A DNA stretch of 58,846 bases from IMG/VR virus record IMGVR_UViG_3300047547_000066, positions 1 through 58,846 of that record; one strand, given 5' to 3'. This DNA is from a virus (Duplodnaviria; Caudoviricetes). Position 1 is the stretch's first letter. Every line of letters starts with the position of its first letter. A program made the translations under genes and the position numbers. The notes below the pieces were generated by a model. That model did no database searches. It saw nothing but the letters and a program-made list of their open reading frames with translations, and was not told the DNA's origin. This document shows, piece after piece, positions 567-33,056 of the stretch.

Positions 567-2561
567 TTAAAAAACGATATTATACAACATTGTTGCTTTT
601 CCTACAAGCACTTTTGCAACAATATTTTCACTATTTGTTGATGAGAAACCAATTCCGCTTAGTTGTTCATCTACACTCTGACACTTGGTCTTATCACCAA
701 GAATCTCAAACACCTTTCGATGTTTTTCCAGAGAAGGGTTCAAGAACTCATTGTAGATTCCCCGAGTTGAGTCTGGATTCTTGCAGCCTTCCAACATAAA
801 GAACCAATGCTTGTTCCCAACTGCATTGTCATCCCAATAGTTGGGCGAATACATCATTGTATTGACTCGAACAAATTCCTCTGTCTTCAGTCCCCATACG
901 TCCTGAGAAATAGAAGTTGACTTGATCCCATCAACAATATCAATTTCAGTGATTTTCTTACCCTTGACCTTGATGGTGCATACCTGAACTTGTCCTGAAA
1001 CAGACCTGTCATATGATAGATTAGTCAATGTACCTTGGTTTTCAACCTCAATCATGAAGCCAACATTGGATGATTCGCGTTTTGAGAACTGGTTAACATA
1101 TACTTGGTACTTCCCATCTAGTAGATTAGAAGAAATCCATGAAACGTTTTCAACTGGTTCACGAGTCTTACCATAACCAGCATTCATGTCAACATCAAGA
1201 CATCCAAATTTGTTGGCATAGTAGATATGATTTCCTTTTGGGTCTTTGATATGGATATCCAGATCGTCATGATTGAACCATGCCAGAGAAACTCGCATAG
1301 CAGCATTGGTGACATTACCACCAGCTTTCTTGACTTTTTCCTTGATAGAATCGGTAATGTTACCATTGTATGACCATGCAAAATCATTGTCCCACTTGAA
1401 TAGGGATTTAGAATCTGTATGCACAGGAGCAGTCAGACTCATTAGATTCTTCTGTTGTGAACCAGACAACAATAGTTCAATGGATGTTGCTTTCGGGAGA
1501 ATATCAGACATGAAAGAATCAATACTGATATCTTTTGTTTTCTTTGGGTCAACATCAACCTTTTTGGTTGCTGCATCAATCAGAATAGATTCAACACCAT
1601 CGCGCATCTTTCCCTTCACTGAGTTATCAACCCAGAGAACGTTGTTGACTGATACATCGGAAATCTTAGCAAATCGACGCTCAAGAGCACTTTCCAGACC
1701 AAGTTCAGTGATAGTCTTCATTGCATCCTGAACCATTCGAGGCGTAATGAGTGCAGTTGGTCGTTTATAGTTGGTTGGAGCAACTTTTGCTTCAAAAGAA
1801 CGCACTGACTTTTCCAGTTCAACACCTTCGGAGATATCCTGAATGAGAGTACCAATGACAGTGTTGCGGAAACGAGCACCAGTAGAGAATGCATTCCCTG
1901 AAATGAAGATGGAACGTTCCATATCAGTTTTCAGAGAATTGTATTTCTTCAGTAGGACATTGAATGAGTTGATTGCTGGCAGATGTTCCTCTCCACGATA
2001 CAGAGACTTGGATTGAATCAGATCAATCACATCATCAATGGCACCAACAGAGAGTTCTTTCAGGCCACGAGAAAACACCTGAATCGCAGAGTTGTAATCA
2101 CCAATAACAGTACCAACAGATTTGGTGTAATGTTTGGCATCAACAATGCCATAGAAATGGTTCCAATTGATTACGGTGGTACCAACCAATTGAGAAGTTT
2201 TCTGAGAACCATATTGCTTTTCAGACACTCGGAAAAGTGAAGTGATCGGTGTCGATACAACCAGATCATTGAGTTCTTTGGCAACGATGTTGAATGGGTA
2301 TTCCAGATCAGCGATATCCCAGATGGAATGAAGTTTACCATCAACAATGGCTACAACAGGACCAATATTGCGAATGAAATTCTTGCAGCAAGAACAATCG
2401 TATTCTGTACGAGTCTTATAGATATTGTTGGTGCCTTCTGGGAATGATTTGAGATATGTATCCCATAGAGCATCACCCGATACAGTAACAAACAATTCCC
2501 CCTTGGAGAGTTGCATGAAACGTTCGTTTACTTTTTTGGCAAATGGTGCAAAGTCAGTCAT
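567..2561 (-). CDS. Large phage protein with C-terminal YfaP/DUF2135-like domain
   Basis: 664-aa ORF; motif VSLAWFNHDDLDIHIKDPKGNHIYY...LDVDMNAG...PVENV resembles YfaP/DUF2135; N-terminal CSCC. Confidence 0.6.
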   Translation of the reverse strand: MTDFAPFAKKVNERFMQLSKGELFVTVSGDALWDTYLKSFPEGTNNIYKTRTEYDCSCCKNFIRNIGPVVAIVDGKLHSIWDIADLEYPFNIVAKELNDLVVSTPITSLFRVSEKQYGSQKTSQLVGTTVINWNHFYGIVDAKHYTKSVGTVIGDYNSAIQVFSRGLKELSVGAIDDVIDLIQSKSLYRGEEHLPAINSFNVLLKKYNSLKTDMERSIFISGNAFSTGARFRNTVIGTLIQDISEGVELEKSVRSFEAKVAPTNYKRPTALITPRMVQDAMKTITELGLESALERRFAKISDVSVNNVLWVDNSVKGKMRDGVESILIDAATKKVDVDPKKTKDISIDSFMSDILPKATSIELLLSGSQQKNLMSLTAPVHTDSKSLFKWDNDFAWSYNGNITDSIKEKVKKAGGNVTNAAMRVSLAWFNHDDLDIHIKDPKGNHIYYANKFGCLDVDMNAGYGKTREPVENVSWISSNLLDGKYQVYVNQFSKRESSNVGFMIEVENQGTLTNLSYDRSVSGQVQVCTIKVKGKKITEIDIVDGIKSTSISQDVWGLKTEEFVRVNTMMYSPNYWDDNAVGNKHWFFMLEGCKNPDSTRGIYNEFLNPSLEKHRKVFEILGDKTKCQSVDEQLSGIGFSSTNSENIVAKVLVGKATMLYNIVF

Positions 2562-4206: not shown

Positions 4207-4234
4207 ATTATACACTGAGCAGATTATTTGTCAA
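4207..4234 (-). promoter_or_regulatory. sigma70-like early promoter
   Basis: TTGACA-16nt-TATAAT. Confidence 0.65.
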
Positions 4235-4357: not shown

Positions 4358-4432
4358 TGGCGGGTGAGGTAGGATTCGAACCCACAACTTGTCCTTGGCA
4401 ATGATATGTGTTACCACTAGCACCACACCCGC
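4358..4432 (-). tRNA. Degenerate/pseudo tRNA-Gly (GCC)
   Basis: GCGGGTG/CACCCGC acceptor, D arm, TTGCCAA loop, GTGGG-TTCGAAT-CCTAC T arm; mismatched anticodon stem and 2 extra nt before the acceptor 3' strand. Confidence 0.6.
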
Positions 4433-4459
4433 ATAACTGTATATATCTAGATTCTTTAC

Positions 4460-4606
4460 CATAATTCAGTACACTCCCAGTTGGCTGTCAATTCAACTGT
4501 AGGTATTAGTGTGTTACCCCGAGCATTACCTTGCAAGACTATTCTCGTTCTGGCACACCTGTCGTGGAACCTGAAACCCCGTAAGACAGAAATGTACTGA
4601 ATTATG
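4460..4606 (-). ncRNA. Stem-bracketed RNA unit A
   Basis: Perfect 14-bp inverted repeat CATAATTCAGTACA/TGTACTGAATTATG enclosing several hairpins. Confidence 0.6.
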
Positions 4607-4608
4607 TC

Positions 4609-4737
4609 GACCCATTGTGGTCTAGGATTCGAACCTAGAATCTCTTGCGCTCTACCATTAAGCTACCGGCCTTTACAGACCGGATGGGATTCGAACCCAT
4701 ATCTCTTGCGTCCTCCCGCTTGAACGACTCACGGGTC
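4609..4737 (-). ncRNA. Anticodon-less double tRNA-elbow RNA (D-T-stemloop-D-T)
   Basis: Two D arms and two GGTTCGAATCC T arms, each D joined to T by GCAAGAGAT; central hairpin CCGGTC-TGTAAA-GGCCGG; ends GACCC/GGGTC pair. Confidence 0.75.
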
Positions 4738-4781
4738 ATCGGGTTAATTACTCCCGATTATAGCAACTGATGATCAGTCAA

Positions 4782-4886
4782 TTACCATATTGAAGAACAC
4801 TACGGTCAGCTGCTCCCGTAAGACCTATAGGCAATACTCCTGGGTGTTAACCCCGCAGGTATAGGATTTATTCTTCAATATGGTAA
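4782..4886 (-). ncRNA. Stem-bracketed RNA unit B
   Basis: Perfect 16-bp inverted repeat TTACCATATTGAAGAA/TTCTTCAATATGGTAA. Confidence 0.6.
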
Positions 4887-4971
4887 CTTGCCACTCCACC
4901 TTAGGAAGCCGACCCATTGATACTATCGCCGAGCCAGCGAGGGATCGAACCTCCTGGACTTATTTCATTAC

Positions 4972-5066
4972 CATATTTGAGAACACTCCCTTACCCCGAT
5001 GATGTTATCGTTGGACAGCAAGTATCTCTCCTGCTTTTCTATGATGGATGAGTGTTCTCAAATATG
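4972..5066 (-). ncRNA. Stem-bracketed RNA unit C
   Basis: Perfect 17-bp inverted repeat CATATTTGAGAACACTC/GAGTGTTCTCAAATATG. Confidence 0.6.
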
Positions 5067-5191
5067 CTCACTGTGATAACTCTATTTCATCAAAAAGCAC
5101 AGTGAAACATGTCTCAACTGCATTACCAACTGCCCCATGCTCGGCAAATAAAAGTTGGCTTTCTGTTGATGATTTGATGTTATGATTGCAA

Positions 5192-5267
5192 CCATATTGA
5201 AGTACATTTGGCCGTCACATTGTTAGGGGCTAGTCCAAAGAATACCCGCAAATGTACTTCAATATGG
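5192..5267 (-). ncRNA. Stem-bracketed RNA unit D
   Basis: Perfect 19-bp inverted repeat CCATATTGAAGTACATTTG/CAAATGTACTTCAATATGG. Confidence 0.6.
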
Positions 5268-5332
5268 CACCCAACTCCCTAAAGCTGGGTTCCACAGTCT
5301 TTGAATCTCGGCATAAAATAAATTTATGTTGT

Positions 5333-5478
5333 TCCGGTGAACTTGGACGACGATCCTCATGCTAGAAATCCGTAGGTAACGGCGCAACTCGTTACTCTAT
5401 TTTAACCAACCGCTGTTAGTGCGGTTCACCGAAGTGTGCTGCTGGCTCCATAGGGATATAGAGTAACAAGCATGGCGG
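5333..5478 (-). ncRNA. Putative pseudoknotted RNA at the 5' end of the RNA array
   Basis: Stems CTTGTTACTCTAT/ATAGAGTAACGAG and CATGCT/AGCATG plus a crossing CGGTGAAC/GTTCACCG pairing. Confidence 0.5.
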
Positions 5479-5488
5479 GACAAACTCT

Positions 5489-5515
5489 ATTATACACTAA
5501 AACTTACTATGTCAA
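5489..5515 (-). promoter_or_regulatory. sigma70-like promoter upstream of the RNA array
   Basis: TTGACA-15nt-TATAAT (short spacer). Confidence 0.55.
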
Positions 5516-5662
5516 CTCTTTTTCTATGGTTTGTGAGCTTTCCACTCACTCGCTGGTTTGCCAACACCGTTCAGTTGTCTAACAATTAAGCAGATTTTAC
5601 TGCACTCTTACGAGCAAAGGTTGCCACAGACTATTATACCACACAATCTACAAGTTTCTTTC

Positions 5663-23618: not shown

Positions 23619-23693
23619 TGCTCCCCGACTTGGATTTACACCAAGATCTACAGTTTATCAGGTCTGTTGCTCTACTAACTGAGCTATCGAGGA
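23619..23693 (-). pseudogene. Degenerate tRNA-Asn paralog with GAT-containing enlarged anticodon loop
   Basis: Acceptor and D arm nearly identical to the adjacent tRNA-Asn; altered anticodon arm, T loop GGTGTAAATCC, no CCA. Confidence 0.65.
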
Positions 23694-30095: not shown

Positions 30096-33056
30096 TTAAT
30101 CAAAATCTAATGTCACTTTTTCTTCTGCATCCCAACCTATAGATTCCAAAATACCATTCAATGGTTTAAGGAATGCTTTTTCAAATTGAGTTTTGTAATC
30201 AATGTATTGGTGTAGGTTAAACTCATCTGGTAGTTTGTTAACATATGCTATAACGTTCTCGTGGATTGTATTAGGCATCTTGAGTGCAACAAACTTTACC
30301 TTGTCGCCATCGTTAATGAGTTGGTATTTGTTATCTAGACCTAGACGTTTCACTGTATGGTTATACAACAATGATCCACGAACATGAATAGGACATCCTT
30401 TAACATAGATGGATGCACTATTACTGTATGTAGTCATACCATTTACACCACGGGGAAATGATACCTCTGTATAGTCACATGCAAAGAATGACTTCTTGAT
30501 GTCTTTCACTTTTCTTTGCAGCTCAACTTCTGTACTGGACAGACATAGCTTCAGTGAATCCTTTAGAAAGTCTTTAACAACAGATGGAGTTGAAGATCGA
30601 ACAATCTCAATACCCATTACTTTCATTTTGGGTTCTTCATATCGTACACCTTCAGTATACAAAATATCAAATGCATAGCGTTTCTTTGCAACGAAAATAA
30701 TGGATGGACCAATACACTCGAGCTTAAAGAATATTTTGCATTTGTCTACACCTAGCGTATTAGCAAACGTTGTTAGCTTCTTATTCAGTGGAGGTGATAG
30801 AACATCAACTACAAACTTTTCTAGTTTATTAACAATCTGATGTTGATCTAGTCCTTTACATTGAGTATCAACAAATGATTGTACTGTAAAATATTGTGAG
30901 TTGTGTACTAGGATATCGTTAGCAAAGAAGTTATGGTTATCATCAACTTCAATGTCATATACATCAATCTCCTGGATACCAAGGTCAACAATTGTATAAG
31001 TTGATGTTCTAGGTATCAACTGCATATCAATGCTTATAACAACATCATCATTCAACATGTTAGCTGGACTAGCTGACAAGTATTCTGTTCCACGCTTAAC
31101 AATCACTGAATGATCTTCGGTGACAATAACAGATTTTCCACCTACAGTAATTTCATACATTCGCTTAGTCACGCGATGTTTCATTACATATTTGATTTGC
31201 TTCTGTTCAATACGTTCAGTCGTTGTATTGAATGATTTTGTTAGTATATTATCAACTGGCTTTACAAAGTTTCGAGTATTGACATCTTCATGAACACAAT
31301 CTGTAGTTATTGAGTCATACAGATCTGAGATTCTCATAAGTTGATCATTAACATACACTAATGTGTCGCCTACAACACTATCAGTATCCATATAGATAAC
31401 AGAATCACCTGTGCTTACCTTACTAAGCATTACATTCATTATGTCTGCTGTACGCTTAATGAACACCTGTCCAGTAGAAGTAATTGCTTCTGCCAATCTA
31501 AAGTCATAATATTTGAAGTGGCTAAGACCAGTAACACCAAAGAAAGAGTTTGCTGCTGTCTTATATGCTTGCTGAGCAATGTCCAAAGCACGGTACTGAT
31601 CTTCCGGTGCATGTAGACGCTTTAATTCAAGCATCTTGTTCTTTGTTTCCTTACGTAAATTGAACATGCGTTCAACTAAGATTGGAATAAACCCTTTGAT
31701 ATCAGTCCGTGTCAACAATCCATTTGCTGACAGAATATGCCCCTCTGGTACATGACCAATGTGTTTACCGTCCAGTATATCCTGGATGTTGAAATCTAAC
31801 ATATCAACAACACACTCTGGGGATATGTTATTTTGCATCATGATGCTAGGATACAGAGACGTTGCATCAATACTCACTGTCCACCCATACTTTCCAGGTA
31901 CTGGATCATGAACGTAAGCACCAACAATCTTATGCTTTTCATTACGTTCTTTATCCAATTCCTCAACAATGTCATTGTCAAGAAAGTAGTTATAGATGAT
32001 GCTTTCCCATAGACGCATTGCCGACAATACATCATCAAATTGACACTTAGCAATGAACCCTAATTGCATTGCTAACCGTACGTGCAACATCTTCAACTCC
32101 AATTTATGGAGTAGCATTGTATCAATTGCATTGTAAAAAACAAAAGTTTCCCAATGGTTCGTATAACTATCTTTGAATGAATCACCTGGTAGTTCAACCT
32201 TACGCTCACCTAGTTCATAATCAGCAATGAAATCTAGCTTGAATGATTCTTTGCTACCAGGGTTGAACTTTTTATAGATGTCCAGTGAGTCAAGGTGAGT
32301 GATCCCCAGAATATCATATGTGTGCTTTACATCATCTTCCATCTGTATGGTACGAGGCTTAACAACTCGCCAAGGTGATAGGAATTTGACTGCGGCTTCA
32401 CCTAACACATTTTTTATACGATTAACAATGTATGGGATATCGAATGTTTCACTGTTCCAGCCACTGATAATATCAATTCGCTCAGTTGCAAAGAACATAA
32501 GGAAATCTTTGAGCATTAACTTTTCAGTCTCAAATACTCGAACTTCAACATTAGGAATGTCGGTATAGATCTTGTTATCTTTTGATATAGGTTTTTGTGA
32601 CCAAACAACCATACGTTTGGTGTTGTGTTCCATCATTGTAATCAATAGGATTTCTTCCAATGCATGATCGGGAGATGGAAACCCTGTACTATTCTCACCT
32701 ACTCGAGTCTCAATATCAAAGAACCATATTTTTGTAATATAGTAGTCCCAATCAATATCACCTTTGAATGTATTGCCTGTAAATTGTCTTGTGATGTCTT
32801 TACAACCATAGATATCAAACCCATGAAGATCTTTGTGATCTTCAACGAAAGTCTTCATGGATTCAATAGAGTCAAACTCACGCTTCTTTACAGGAACATT
32901 GGATTTAAAGACATGATACTTTGCATCTTGTTCTTGAGATTTGACAAACAGATGTGGTCTATATGGAATTTTTTCTTGTACAGGAATTCCTTTATCGTAT
33001 CCACGATAAAGTACATAGTTTCCTCGAGTCTCAATGTTTGTATAGAATTTGCTCAT
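30096..33056 (-). CDS. gp43: Family B DNA polymerase gp43, intein-containing
   Basis: Exo FFDIET, GWNSETFDIPY, DATSLYPS, KTAANSFFG, YMDTD/S and KKRYA motifs. Confidence 0.97.
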   Translation of the reverse strand: MSKFYTNIETRGNYVLYRGYDKGIPVQEKIPYRPHLFVKSQEQDAKYHVFKSNVPVKKREFDSIESMKTFVEDHKDLHGFDIYGCKDITRQFTGNTFKGDIDWDYYITKIWFFDIETRVGENSTGFPSPDHALEEILLITMMEHNTKRMVVWSQKPISKDNKIYTDIPNVEVRVFETEKLMLKDFLMFFATERIDIISGWNSETFDIPYIVNRIKNVLGEAAVKFLSPWRVVKPRTIQMEDDVKHTYDILGITHLDSLDIYKKFNPGSKESFKLDFIADYELGERKVELPGDSFKDSYTNHWETFVFYNAIDTMLLHKLELKMLHVRLAMQLGFIAKCQFDDVLSAMRLWESIIYNYFLDNDIVEELDKERNEKHKIVGAYVHDPVPGKYGWTVSIDATSLYPSIMMQNNISPECVVDMLDFNIQDILDGKHIGHVPEGHILSANGLLTRTDIKGFIPILVERMFNLRKETKNKMLELKRLHAPEDQYRALDIAQQAYKTAANSFFGVTGLSHFKYYDFRLAEAITSTGQVFIKRTADIMNVMLSKVSTGDSVIYMDTDSVVGDTLVYVNDQLMRISDLYDSITTDCVHEDVNTRNFVKPVDNILTKSFNTTTERIEQKQIKYVMKHRVTKRMYEITVGGKSVIVTEDHSVIVKRGTEYLSASPANMLNDDVVISIDMQLIPRTSTYTIVDLGIQEIDVYDIEVDDNHNFFANDILVHNSQYFTVQSFVDTQCKGLDQHQIVNKLEKFVVDVLSPPLNKKLTTFANTLGVDKCKIFFKLECIGPSIIFVAKKRYAFDILYTEGVRYEEPKMKVMGIEIVRSSTPSVVKDFLKDSLKLCLSSTEVELQRKVKDIKKSFFACDYTEVSFPRGVNGMTTYSNSASIYVKGCPIHVRGSLLYNHTVKRLGLDNKYQLINDGDKVKFVALKMPNTIHENVIAYVNKLPDEFNLHQYIDYKTQFEKAFLKPLNGILESIGWDAEEKVTLDFD
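30900..31379 (-). mobile_element. Mini-intein (160 aa, no homing endonuclease) in the gp43 motif C
   Basis: Interrupts YMDTD|S; starts SVVGDT, block B VTEDHS, ends VYDIEV...FFANDILVHN, +1 Ser. Confidence 0.92.

Follow-up and report, generated by a model that had tools for sequence, protein, structure and literature searches.

A non-coding phage region holds four stem-closed units

The window, by which we mean the whole stretch of 58,846 nucleotides analysed here (IMG/VR record IMGVR_UViG_3300047547_000066), represents part of the genome of an uncultured, T4-like freshwater phage. Four units, A to D, lie on its minus strand in an ORF-less stretch of 1.25 kb between two promoters (Table 1), in a region syntenic with the tRNA arrays that relatives carry upstream of the phosphoesterase gene. 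An inverted-repeat search of the window recovered exactly the repeats of these four units, with arms of 14–19 nt that are 100% complementary; the left arms form one direct-repeat family (D1, 76–100% identity), and the interiors do not align to each other. The first-pass annotation had described just this, four perfect inverted repeats of 14–19 bp with related arms and unrelated interiors. Allowing up to three mismatches, the arm motif CCATATTGAAGNACA matches the window 20 times against 9.6 expected, a count reached in none of 100 shuffles (the largest gave 16), and eight of the 20 matches are the eight arms of units A–D. Unit C carries the variant arm CAUAUUUGAGAACACUC, and unit A is the most divergent of the four. 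Folding gives each unit a long terminal stem with z-scores of −2.9 to −5.8, and since the stems are perfectly Watson–Crick, the units fold equally on either strand.

Table 1. Features of the non-coding region, listed from the upstream promoter-like site along the minus strand
Feature	Position	Strand	Description
Early-type promoter-like site	5487..5514	minus	TTGACA, 15 nt, TATAAT, AAAGAG before; heads the ORF-less unit
Upstream non-coding RNA segment	5268..5480	minus	Ends ...GGGUG, then CCA of unit D
Unit D	5192..5267	minus	Arms 5192-5210/5249-5267; 19-bp perfect stem, 38-nt loop
Unit C	4972..5066	minus	Arms 4972-4988/5050-5066; 17-bp perfect stem, 61-nt loop
Segment between units C and B	4887..4971	minus	T-arm-like hairpin (GGAGGUUCGAUCCCUC)
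Unit B	4782..4886	minus	Arms 4782-4797/4871-4886; 16-bp perfect stem (UUACCAUAUUGAAGAA), 73-nt loop
X RNA, between units B and A	4607..4781	minus	Conserved tRNA-like RNA
Unit A	4460..4606	minus	Arms 4460-4473/4593-4606; 14-bp perfect stem (CAUAAUUCAGUACA), 119-nt loop
tRNA-Gly(GCC)-like gene	4361..4430	minus	Rfam tRNA 29.7 bits; 29 nt downstream of unit A
Second consensus promoter	4207..4234	minus	12/12 matches; non-coding unit ends, downstream ORFs start

Units D and B have CCA at their start and UGG at their end, the CCA of unit D lying immediately 3' of the upstream RNA, whereas unit C begins with GCA and unit A with ACA. No tRNA called by ARAGORN directly abuts any of the four, and the boundaries of the window units are atypical for the family described below. 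The interiors share a short motif, CGGGG, to which the first-pass annotation had drawn attention. It is real for this phage: CGGGGT occurs four times in the interiors (twice in A, once each in B and C) against 0.06 expected, a count found in 0 of 5000 shuffles, and only six times on the entire minus strand of the window. It is not, however, a feature of the family, where CGGGG is present in four of 122 interior types and CGGGGT in one.

The units alternate with other candidate RNAs. The upstream promoter-like site shares repeat D3/D9 with the second promoter and was absent from the promoter scan because of its short spacer. The segment that follows it contains a 13-bp hairpin (5388-5400/5458-5470) and is kept in related contigs (L135, 83% over 233 nt; L136; L064, 74% over 132 nt), and the segment between units C and B is 75% identical over 112 nt to positions 2819-2928 of contig L067. 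The X RNA, 79% identical to the same contig over 212 nt, combines two D-arm/T-arm modules with a closed acceptor-like hairpin and lacks an anticodon arm; its T-stems are compensated in alignment A1, and its Rfam matches, both below threshold, are to YrlA (34.2 bits) and tRNA (30.4 bits). The tRNA-Gly(GCC)-like gene was not called by ARAGORN, and it is 80–88% identical to regions overlapping tRNA-Gly(GCC) genes in three contigs (L055, L063, L028). Neither ARAGORN nor Rfam called a tmRNA gene in the window, and units A–D do not lie inside a permuted tmRNA. Against Rfam 15, the window units gave only chance matches to microRNA models (17–20 bits), and canonical units from three other loci (L009, L062, L097) gave no match. 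No intrinsic terminator-like site was found on the minus strand between 3800 and 6200.

The units belong to a family in phage tRNA arrays

Searching phage genomes for the arms as a bracket, a check that the first-pass annotation had proposed, located CCATATTGAAG-N50-80-CTTCAATATGG in 73 other viral contigs, nearly always within tRNA arrays: tRNA genes were called in 56 of the 60 bracket loci scanned, and most of these are arrays. A relaxed scan raised the collection to 211 units from 90 sources, and some arrays hold seven to ten cassettes together with other tRNA-like RNAs. Bacterial and archaeal genomes contained no match to the bracket. A blastn search of 50,697 cultured-phage records with the window region and a canonical unit returned nothing useful, 17-nt arms giving poor sensitivity, and in T4, S-CRM01, DSL-LC03 and S-BM3 the arm motif gave unpaired matches only, at control level. 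The family is confined to the tRNA/tmRNA arrays of uncultured aquatic T4-like phages. Within five whole records, paired motif matches fall in one or two array regions only, and single matches elsewhere stay at the level of a reversed-pattern control; the dispersed copies by which the first-pass annotation would have recognised a MITE are not there.

The boundaries of the units coincide with the ends of tRNAs. Of 195 units that could be oriented, 93 have a stem whose start falls precisely on the CCA encoded at the end of the preceding tRNA; at the other side the stem often ends at U-1/G1/G2 of the next tRNA, 35 of the 195 units ending two bases inside it. A test that made no use of the motif gave the same picture, with a hairpin of at least 12 bp starting from C74 in 84 of 815 tRNAs against 67 of 4075 at control offsets. 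Hairpins of 18–22 bp with other sequences likewise begin at the CCA, and most tRNAs of the same arrays are spaced by 1–10 nt and have no hairpin. A different arrangement, in which the arms would pair mainly across tRNAs, was rejected: leader–trailer pairing of at least 9 bp was found in only about 12 of 846 tRNAs, against one in a permuted control.

The stems covary as RNA helices do. In a covariation alignment (A2, with unit D as its first row), 97.8% of 1581 cells are paired, against 89.9% after shuffling and 23–51% with the partner slid; in 14 of the 17 stem pairs both partners vary, and none of 500 shuffles reached the observed value by any measure. The earlier claim that differences between units are compensatory, leaving each stem perfect with its own partner, therefore holds in the window and across the family. 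The uninterrupted helix is 17–20 bp long in 104 of 154 units, the stems have 34% G+C, and the lower 10 bp are conserved in sequence, with C-G at stem positions 1 and 2 in 141 and 131 of the 154 units. The helix length lies in the range of uninterrupted bacterial RNase III substrates (about 15–22 bp; window stems, 14–19 bp). Wobble pairs show which strand is folded: read in the tRNA sense, the pair at position 16 is U.G in 102 of 154 units and C.A in two, position 11 is G.U 29 times and never A.C, and the mean helix, with one mismatch allowed, measures 19.0 bp in sense and 16.1 bp in antisense. Together with the covariation, the sense-strand wobble pairs mark the stem as an RNA helix and not a DNA palindrome or MITE, and along with boundaries at the tRNA 3' CCA and the 5' end of the next tRNA they uphold the first-pass supposition that the units act as RNA. 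The 3' arm contains a resemblance to a MotA box (TGCTTCA), which we dismissed because those positions covary freely.

Cassettes turn over at the arm sites. Three relatives that are 83–88% identical differ by whole cassettes, with breakpoints inside an 11-nt arm repeat. Sites that lack a unit have ordinary AU-rich spacers of 1–10 nt with no footprint, and the target-site duplications named in the first-pass annotation as a sign of MITEs were not seen there, in comparisons between tRNAs only 40–85% identical.

The same cassette occupies permuted tmRNA genes, and one of its loops sits in ribozymes

ARAGORN called permuted tmRNA genes in seven loci, one of which (L086) has a unit inside the gene, and the Rfam model tmRNA_permuted scored 98.9 bits on another contig, L108. 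For one interior, payload 0, ten of 26 distinct contexts are tmRNA intervening sequences. The cultured phages Melnitz and HTVC008M carry CCA...UGA-UGG hairpins at the same place in their tmRNA genes, of the form CCA-UAAACACUU...AAGUGUUUA-UGA-UGG and similar, and the hairpin that pairs CCA with U-1/G1/G2 has the same geometry in L037, L108, Melnitz and HTVC008M. The same type of cassette is the intervening sequence of the permuted tmRNA genes in these phages. This intervening sequence is missing from mature tmRNA, the transcript being cut by tRNA-processing enzymes, according to the accessible parts of two studies (PMC11915505, PMC9004378); those parts contain no description of the hairpin, of its conservation or of its spread into tRNA arrays. 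Payload 0 has a further setting in two contigs (L107, L127), where it closes stem III of type-I hammerheads. Neither the tRNA-array context nor the homology to the permuted-tmRNA intervening sequence appeared in the first-pass annotation.

The open literature, apart from subscription journals and supplements, yielded no description of these cassettes, and the listed matches to the arm sequence as a text string look unrelated by title. The family is large and apparently undescribed.

Loops differ between units and are conserved between phages

How variable is the cargo, and is it kept? The 154 distinct units form 122 interior clusters, so that one conserved helix of 17–20 bp encloses at least 122 unrelated loop types, which bears out the picture of a constant handle with variable cargo. 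Between phages with tRNAs of about 70% identity, a given loop type is nevertheless 88–100% identical. In 41 pairs of units with the same interior type, mean identity is 91% in the interior, 81% in the upper stem and 71% in the 80-nt flanks, values biased upward because the pairs were found through sequence similarity. Where different phages share a cargo, the cargo is conserved and the upper stem is not, its identity beside the conserved payload often being 43–57%; the first-pass annotation had not noticed this. Same-anticodon tRNAs, for comparison, show 65–75% identity in 15 of 17 locus pairs examined; the remaining pairs (80% and 91%) have only one or two tRNA types in common. Among tmRNAs with flanks of 70–72% identity, payload 0 shows 96%; the search fixed 20 of its 46 nt, and the remaining nucleotides are about 93% identical.

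The window units show the same pattern. The loop of unit C recurs, with 61 of 61 nucleotides unchanged, in a viral contig (L134) that does not align elsewhere and in which the stem has a different sequence with compensatory changes, and that of unit B is 71/73 identical in L136 and about 92% in L135, contigs in which its whole region is 88% and 85% identical by BLAST. For the loops of units A, B and D, 20–21-mers gave no other match in IMG/VR. Across the family, identical or near-identical payloads adjoin different tRNAs in contigs that otherwise do not align, and the limits of conservation coincide with the limits of the units. This conservation may reflect recent transfer rather than constraint.

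The loops reveal little of a common design. Their predicted structure does not differ from that of shuffles (mean z −0.27 in sense, −0.35 in antisense), column conservation does not extend past stem position 17 to either side, and a comparison of the interiors, each set in the direction of its tRNAs, gave 0 minus-strand links, none being present in both orientations. Of the 122 loop types, 17 contain the T-loop motif GTTCGA, against 1.9 expected. A loop can be dispensable, since in two contigs (L090, L094) the spacer between tRNA-Lys and tRNA-His holds a mini version whose loop is 3 nt. Small-peptide genes are not apparent: a Shine–Dalgarno sequence and ATG followed by at least eight codons occurs in none of the 122 unit types, against 4.6 expected in shuffles. 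The guide function raised in the first-pass annotation found no support, as complementarity was not above chance between the window interiors and the rest of the window, and family interiors scored 7.52 against tRNAs of the same locus, compared with 7.41 in shuffles. A 20-mer of the commonest payload, searched for bacterial targets, matched one phage-like 3-kb contig with a phage-type tmRNA and nothing else.

Among the encoded proteins, those neighbouring the arrays are ordinary T4-type products or have no assigned function, with no recurrent transposase-like or RAYT-like gene among the neighbours examined. In five phage records we found no RNase III gene, no TROVE/Rsr domain (PF05731) and no Nop domain (PF01798); for the Nop search the five include the window, and divergent Tas proteins may escape the Pfam model. 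The window has no homologue of an RNaseH-like (PF04308) ORF.

Discussion

We lean towards reading the units as spacer RNAs that are excised at tRNA-processing boundaries and consist of a constant helix and a selected payload. The units would be co-transcribed on the minus strand with the tRNA-like RNAs from the early-type promoter; transcription and excision are suggested by homology, the boundaries and the promoter-like sites, and the cleavages, the release and any function in trans are likewise inferred. The helix of 17–20 bp spans two tRNA-processing sites, its 5' arm running from C74, in the CCA that the upstream tRNA or tRNA-like RNA encodes, and its 3' arm up to U-1/G1/G2 of the downstream one. 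Removal of the corresponding intervening sequence is required for a two-piece tmRNA. RNase P may cut the 3' boundary where a tRNA follows, and 3'-end maturation at the CCA may cut the 5' boundary, either through an endonuclease acting in the AU-rich CCA-UAUU stretch or through RNase III acting in the helix, followed by trimming. The product would be a stem-closed RNA of about 75–150 nt in which the helix, as the constant module, sets the ends and shields them from exonucleases, and the largely unstructured loop is a selected payload, probably acting in trans. At the DNA level the same helix could serve as the repeat for cassette gain and loss. RNase P and single-strand endonucleases favour unpaired substrates, and pairing of the CCA and of the leader should be an obstacle to the cleavages proposed here.

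A bolder version, which we entertain only tentatively, is that the cassettes form an exchangeable library of small RNAs with one universal helix, released by host tRNA-processing enzymes or sometimes by a hammerhead, with payloads that act in trans. Such a library might comprise dozens to hundreds of different payload RNAs of 40–120 nt, each conserved more tightly than the phage's own tRNAs, and might be directed at the host or at rival phages, for example as decoy, sponge or antisense RNAs. Recombination in the handle would shuffle the cassettes among phages, tRNA spacers, tmRNA genes and ribozymes.

Could the hairpins instead be pure punctuation in cis, RNase III-type sites that cut the array into tRNA and tRNA-like products and carry functionless loops that are partly decayed tRNAs? 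The helix is perfect, AU-rich, narrow in length and of sufficient extent for bacterial RNase III, for which the accessible part of PMC1540722 gives a 34-nt hairpin as the minimal substrate, and this account fits the mini versions without a real loop, the 18–22 bp hairpins of other sequence at the CCA, the lack of loop structure, the GTTCGA enrichment, as of decayed tRNAs, and the alternation of window units with conserved tRNA-like RNAs. We still consider it unlikely: conservation of a given loop exceeds that of the upper stem, of the tRNAs beside it and of the body of the tmRNA, which is not expected of junk; one and the same loop is found in three different scaffolds, among them a ribozyme that cleaves itself and has no need of RNase III; most tRNAs of the same arrays do without a hairpin; and as the five phage records lack an RNase III gene, the enzyme would be the host's. 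Near-identical payloads in non-aligning contigs beside different tRNAs, conservation that stops at the unit limits, and close relatives that differ by entire cassettes with breakpoints in the 11-nt repeat would all be expected if the units were selfish or semi-selfish mobile cassettes, whose payloads, alone or together with their stems, spread from phage to phage and among tRNA spacers, tmRNA intervening sequences and ribozyme loops by arm recombination or by a hairpin-directed mechanism somewhat in the manner of REPINs, with their conservation due to recent spread; T4-type phages also recombine readily. Yet in whole records the units keep to the part with the tRNA array, copies in one genome have different interiors (the 154 distinct units comprise 122 types), the array neighbours examined include no recurrent transposase-like gene, and unit-less sites bear no target-site duplication or footprint, within the limits set by the divergence of the tRNAs compared. 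Transfer as a block would moreover have carried the upper stem along with its payload, and the strand-specific wobble pairs reflect selection on an RNA fold, leaving mobility as the main explanation quite improbable.

The remaining alternatives assign the units to known kinds of element, and all seem to us very improbable at best. As a scaffold resembling Y RNA, the helix would dock a ring-shaped or other RNA-binding protein, for example of the host Ro/Rsr type, and the variable module would recruit different partners, a role that has been proposed for bacterial YrlA. A terminal helix formed from both ends, a variable module with a T-arm in about 14% of types and the sub-threshold YrlA match beside the window units recall such RNAs, and the conserved lower 10 bp with U.G at position 16 suggest recognition beyond shape. 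The YrlA match lies in the X RNA and not in a unit, however, falls below the 69-bit cut-off and has counterparts (22–30 bits) wherever a T-arm precedes a D-arm; no TROVE/Rsr gene was found in the five records; and the helix is perfect, whereas Y RNAs have a bulged Ro-binding site. That the units are guide-RNA arrays, of the TIGR-Tas or another kind, with loop spacers that direct a protein to nucleic-acid targets, is more doubtful still and already weakly refuted: the tandem arrangement, common handle and differing loops agree with it, as does the occurrence of TIGR systems in phages (PMC12045711, in its accessible part), but no complementarity rises above chance in the window or against same-locus tRNAs, no conserved column beside the stem could represent box C/D motifs flanking spacers of 8–12 nt, the loops measure 38–119 nt instead of about 36 nt, the stems are conserved here and are variable palindromes in TIGR stem-loop arrays, and no Nop-domain protein was detected in the five records, subject to the reach of Pfam for divergent Tas proteins. 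Least credible, and largely refuted, are elements acting as DNA, such as palindromic protein-binding sites, invertible segments or cruciforms with an effect on replication, recombination or transcription. The arms are inverted repeats in DNA and serve as recombination breakpoints, and the window stems by themselves would fold on either strand, but the half-sites of the family differ strand-specifically (T versus C at position 16) in step with the tRNA strand, no interior is found in both orientations, the boundaries are RNA processing sites, and the hairpin is present within a tmRNA gene and within a ribozyme. Overall, the interpretation offered in the first-pass annotation is partly supported.

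Should the cassettes indeed be released and their payloads be selected, a large hidden repertoire of small RNAs would be encoded by aquatic T4-like phages, a group that ranks among the most abundant viruses of lakes. It is usual to treat a phage tRNA array as a list of tRNAs; here a tenth of the tRNAs precede a dedicated hairpin. The link to permuted tmRNA offers a handle on the processing and evolution of two-piece tmRNA genes, and the helix could serve as a natural portable module with which any chosen RNA is freed from a tRNA-type transcript. On the more modest reading, as processing spacers, the units still give phage annotation a recognisable and searchable RNA family; the library, if real, would add modular RNAs as a new class of non-coding RNA in phages and would put the tRNA array to a new use.

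Comparison with known systems

Several known systems place small RNAs or hairpins in comparable positions. Species 1 and 2 of T4 (rnaC, rnaD) are likewise non-tRNA small RNAs of a tRNA cluster, directly after a tRNA; species 1, which was reportedly cleaved by RNase III in work of the 1970s, folds with a closing stem and a 3' T-arm. They share neither sequence similarity nor a common handle with the cassettes, motif matches in T4 being unpaired and at control level. The RNase III hairpins of the T7 early transcript and the stems of rRNA operons punctuate polycistronic transcripts and resemble the units as conserved hairpins or long stems within such a transcript, but the cassette loops are long and conserved, and no RNase III gene was found in the five phage records. 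In the accessible accounts, the HDV-like theta ribozymes behind phage tRNAs separate off a small RNA that directly follows the tRNA, and plant tRNA–snoRNA dicistrons free theirs by RNase Z in the course of tRNA-end formation; the hammerheads that carry a payload in L107 and L127 add to this likeness. The units, unlike theta ribozymes, have no catalytic core, as only a perfect helix is conserved, and no Rfam ribozyme match.

REPINs and MITEs are present in many copies, form a hairpin when single-stranded, and have inverted arms that are conserved, with compensatory changes, around a centre that is less so. The units have such arms and compensation too, but they are not dispersed, their centres are unrelated, they are tied to tRNA ends, and no RAYT- or transposase-like neighbour was found. 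With TIGR-Tas arrays the cassettes share phage-borne tandem stem-loops with variable inner parts, and one TIGR type, as the accessible part of PMC12045711 describes it, consists of tandem stem-loops with a variable intervening sequence and CCA/UG box motifs. The cassettes differ in having conserved stems and no box motifs, and a Nop protein was not found in the five records. In the window, the units stand in tandem between separate tRNA-like RNAs and have a longer lower stem (CCAUAUUGAAG...) than the intervening sequence of permuted tmRNA. Both are hairpins, that of the tmRNA lying between an encoded CCA and G1 of the tRNA-like domain, and relatives of the window phage use the same type of cassette there, even with the same payloads.

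The four units and their surroundings

An inverted-repeat search of the window recovered, exactly and in place, the four perfect inverted repeats described in the first-pass annotation. All four fold with long terminal stems (4/4) and their left arms form a single repeat family; the arm motif matches 20 times in the window against 9.6 expected (reached in 0/100 shuffles), and eight of the 20 matches are the eight unit arms. The CGGGG-type interior motif noted in the same annotation holds for this phage, CGGGGT being present four times across the A, B and C interiors where 0.06 copies are expected (0/5000 shuffles), but across the interior types scanned it is no feature of the wider cassette family.

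No ORF longer than 45 codons occurs in the unit-bearing stretch (4430-5520), and at the same site in relatives, upstream of a phosphoesterase gene, there are ordinary tRNA arrays. The repeated motif AAAGAGTTGACA ... GTGTATAAT is promoter-like and probably represents the early promoters of the phage. X RNA, a conserved tRNA-like RNA of about 175 nt, comprises two D-arm/T-arm modules and a closed acceptor-like hairpin, with a closing stem GACCCGUG/CACAAUGGGUC and without an anticodon arm; its homologues in L067, L068, L097 (G004), L135 and L136 (viral loci with related cassettes) carry compensated changes in both T-stems. X RNA accounts for the YrlA (34 bits) and tRNA (30 bits) matches that fall below threshold. 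ARAGORN missed two window tRNA genes: the tRNA-Gly(GCC)-like gene (Rfam 29.7 bits), whose anticodon stem is weak and which shows 80-88% identity to regions overlapping tRNA-Gly(GCC) genes in other phages, and the fifth tRNA of the 23-kb cluster (50.4 bits).

The 58.8-kb IMG/VR record has an estimated completeness of about 33%, and freshwater metagenomes are the source of the DNA runs that contain the unit region. The large genes of the record are of T4 type: a family-B DNA polymerase, a ribonucleotide reductase and a UvsW-like helicase. With cyanomyovirus polymerases, the polymerase shares only about 36% identity. The best cultured matches to this polymerase align as two pieces.

Coordinates of features in the window and in related loci (L numbers); ordinals give the order along the unit-bearing stretch
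Feature	Locus	Position	Strand	Remarks
Promoter-like site	window	5514-5487	-	1st, 5' end
Conserved RNA, 210 nt	window		-	2nd, directly before D; ends ...GGGUG
Unit D	window	5192-5267	-	3rd; inverted repeat 19 bp
125-nt segment	window		-	4th, between D and C
Unit C	window	4972-5066	-	5th; inverted repeat 17 bp
85-nt segment	window		-	6th, between C and B; T-arm-like hairpin
Unit B	window	4782-4886	-	7th; inverted repeat 16 bp
X RNA	window	4607-4781	-	8th, between B and A
Unit A	window	4460-4606	-	9th; inverted repeat 14 bp
tRNA-Gly(GCC)-like gene	window	4361-4430	-	10th
Second putative promoter	window	4234-4207	-	11th, 3' end
Further copy of promoter-like motif	window	~5952-5940	-	
tRNA gene	window	23621-23693	-	23-kb cluster
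Family-B DNA polymerase	window	30096-33056	-	intein-splicing-domain match, residues 696-719
PF04308 ORF	L054	5178-5729		
tRNA, anticodon CTA	L083	535-609		array end
tmRNA IVS hairpin	L080	8553-8913		short frame, 10 codons
tmRNA IVS hairpin	L095	8063-8453		short frame, 27 codons, hydrophobic
tmRNA IVS hairpin	L139 (Melnitz)	~1560-1710		short frame, ~60 codons
Permuted tmRNA	L101	2036-2427		payload 0 in IVS hairpin
Type-I hammerhead	L107	11662-11765		inside tRNA array
Type-I hammerhead	L127	~1400-1530		inside tRNA array

A hairpin family of viral tRNA arrays

A search for the terminal bracket, as the first-pass annotation had suggested, shows that other viral genomes carry it, mostly in tRNA arrays. 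The exact bracket CCATATTGAAG-N50-80-CTTCAATATGG occurs in 73 viral contigs besides the window, with tRNA genes called in 56 of 60 scanned loci and arrays in most; none of 185,579 bacterial and archaeal species genomes contains it, nor do T4, S-CRM01, DSL-LC03 and S-BM3, and no Rfam 15 family matches the window or family units. A relaxed scan (arm with at most 3 mismatches and no fewer than 13 positions paired) yielded 211 units from 90 sources; for 195 the nearest tRNA gave an orientation, and distinct units number 154. In 93/195 the unit begins precisely at C74 of the CCA encoded by the upstream tRNA, and in 35/195 its two final G's double as nucleotides 1-2 of the tRNA that follows. In a motif-free test, hairpins of at least 12 bp start from C74 in 84/815 tRNAs versus 67/4075 at control offsets; 69 of these 84 fit the arm motif at up to 3 mismatches, and among the others are helices of 18-22 bp with a different sequence.

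Cassette-bearing contigs are T4-like (RegA, clamp and clamp loader, UvsX, gp43, Hsp20), with polymerases about 50% identical to the nearest cultured relatives. In five whole records paired motif matches are confined to the tRNA-array region, and density in whole records reaches about 10 units per 6 kb. An ORF of the RNaseH-like YkuK family (PF04308) lies in or beside the tRNA arrays of 17 loci, with no homologue in the genome part covered by the window. L083, a window relative, has an amber-reading tRNA called by ARAGORN.

Its base-pair substitutions show that the stem forms in RNA, on the strand of the tRNAs. In tRNA orientation, position 16 across the 154 units is U.G in 102, C-G in 23, U-A in 9 and C.A in 2, and at positions 11-14 G.U and U.G are in large excess over A.C and C.A; position 8 breaks this pattern, A.C occurring there in 13 of 154. 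Allowing one mismatch, the mean helix is 19.0 bp in the sense strand versus 16.1 bp in the other; it runs uninterrupted for 17-20 bp in 104/154 units, and pairing collapses beyond position 17-18. A covariation alignment took in 93 units, namely the four from the window and a single representative of each interior type. Of its cells, 97.8% are paired versus 89.9% in shuffles and 23-51% with the partner slid, and 14 of 17 pairs show two-sided changes, no measure being matched by any shuffle (0/500). Covariation at positions 11-15 is chiefly through transitions, and the lower ten pairs are near-invariant in sequence, a property that the search itself favoured. The end of the 3' arm (...AAUAU before G1) fits the tRNA leader consensus of these phages (U-1, A-2, U-3), which may account for part of the lower-stem conservation. 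Position 16 is U.G in 70/93 rows (A2 columns 16/134), and the recurrent A.C at position 8 (A2 columns 8/178) lies eight pairs away; these two conserved non-Watson-Crick features may be recognition marks.

Conserved payloads and cassette turnover

By interior, the 154 distinct units make up 122 types, none of them found in both orientations. Interiors are no more structured than shuffles (mean z -0.27), and the sole enriched motif across them is the T-loop GTTCGA (17/122 versus 1.9 expected). Versions with a 3-nt loop exist.

The payload of a given type is remarkably conserved between phages. Mean identity over 41 same-type unit pairs is 91% in the interior, 95% in the lower stem, 81% in the upper stem and 71% in the flanks; the pairs were selected through similarity, so identity is biased upward, a bias that leaves the contrast between interior and adjacent upper stem unaffected. 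In several pairs the upper stem is just 43-57% identical. Same-anticodon tRNAs were compared in 17 pairs of these loci: they share 65-75% identity in 15 pairs, and 80% and 91% in the other two, which have one or two shared tRNA types. The unit C payload is identical (61/61) in L134, where the stem differs with compensated changes and the other 6.9 kb cannot be aligned to the window; that of unit B matches at 71/73 positions (hand count) in L136, a relative whose region is 88% identical by BLAST. Probes from payloads A, B and D found no other match in IMG/VR.

Whole cassettes come and go. From the conserved upstream RNA to unit B, the window holds D, C and their two following segments, L136 nothing, and L135 a single unit of another kind, whose payload is a T-arm. 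Breakpoints fall in the 11-nt arm repeat.

The tmRNA connection

ARAGORN calls permuted tmRNA genes in seven loci, five of them window relatives; Rfam confirms one (98.9 bits), and in L086 a unit sits within the gene. These genes run from an acceptor piece (...CCA) through a hairpin to a coding piece (GGG...), an order by which the hairpin spans CCA to U-1/G1/G2, as between tRNAs. The hairpin is homologous to the units and of the same build (e.g. CCAUAAGCAUACU...AGUAUGCUUAUGA-UGG), and the arrangement recurs in cultured Melnitz and HTVC008M.

Payload 0, the commonest (46 nt), was traced to 32 viral contigs plus a phage-like one that had been binned with a bacterial genome. Its 26 distinct contexts are 10 tmRNA intervening sequences (IVS), 14 tRNA-array-type hairpins and 2 hammerheads, where it forms the loop of stem III. 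The hammerhead core reads as intact (CUGAUGA, GAAA, GUC); the Rfam scores, 30.3 and 24.6 bits, are both below threshold because of the long insertion. A second payload is common to a tRNA-array unit (L079) and the tmRNAs of L083 and L090. The bacterial bin is a Halanaerobiaceae MAG, and its 3-kb contig (L101), with a phage-type permuted tmRNA, is probably misplaced phage DNA.

Discussion

What are the units? We favor, as the probable reading, spacer RNAs of the tmRNA-intervening-sequence type. We infer that they are co-transcribed with their neighbors and that the two reactions that form tRNA ends also set theirs. The 3' boundary would be made by RNase P; at the 5' boundary, CCA-end maturation could begin with an endonuclease cutting the AU-rich CCA-UAUU stretch, or with RNase III cleaving the helix before the end is trimmed. 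The product would be a released, stem-closed hairpin displaying a single-stranded payload. That the payload acts in trans is a tentative proposal, somewhat less likely than the spacer reading itself. The data above establish the family itself, pairing at the RNA level, the unit boundaries, homology to tmRNA spacers, conservation of the payloads and turnover of cassettes.

Helix length and the loop-less versions would suit units serving as pure punctuation for RNase III, a reading that is nevertheless unlikely, as neither the conservation of payloads nor the hammerhead context fits it. Selfish spread of a cassette, to which identical payloads in unrelated contexts lend some appeal, seems to us slightly less probable still: upper stems differ, units are confined to arrays, and copies within one genome do not share interiors. 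Y-RNA-like scaffolds, which fail defining tests, are very improbable; the corresponding tests also went against TIGR-like guides, which are even less credible, and against elements acting at the DNA level, the least plausible of these readings.

Permuted tmRNA genes whose intervening sequence is cut out are already known. Two-piece tmRNA encoded by such phages is described in one publication (PMC9004378), and another (PMC11915505) reports that tRNA-processing enzymes cut the permuted transcript and that mature tmRNA lacks the intervening sequence. The two settings differ in coding content: some tmRNA IVS hairpins (L080, L095, Melnitz) carry a short frame with ATG and a strong Shine-Dalgarno, the ribosome-binding site lying in the hairpin 5' arm, whereas among tRNA-array units such frames occur in 0/122 interior types (4.6 expected). 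Rfam and the titles and abstracts of the literature searched contain no account of the hairpin, its spread through tRNA arrays or its conserved payloads; should the payloads turn out to act in trans as RNAs, this would constitute a new class.
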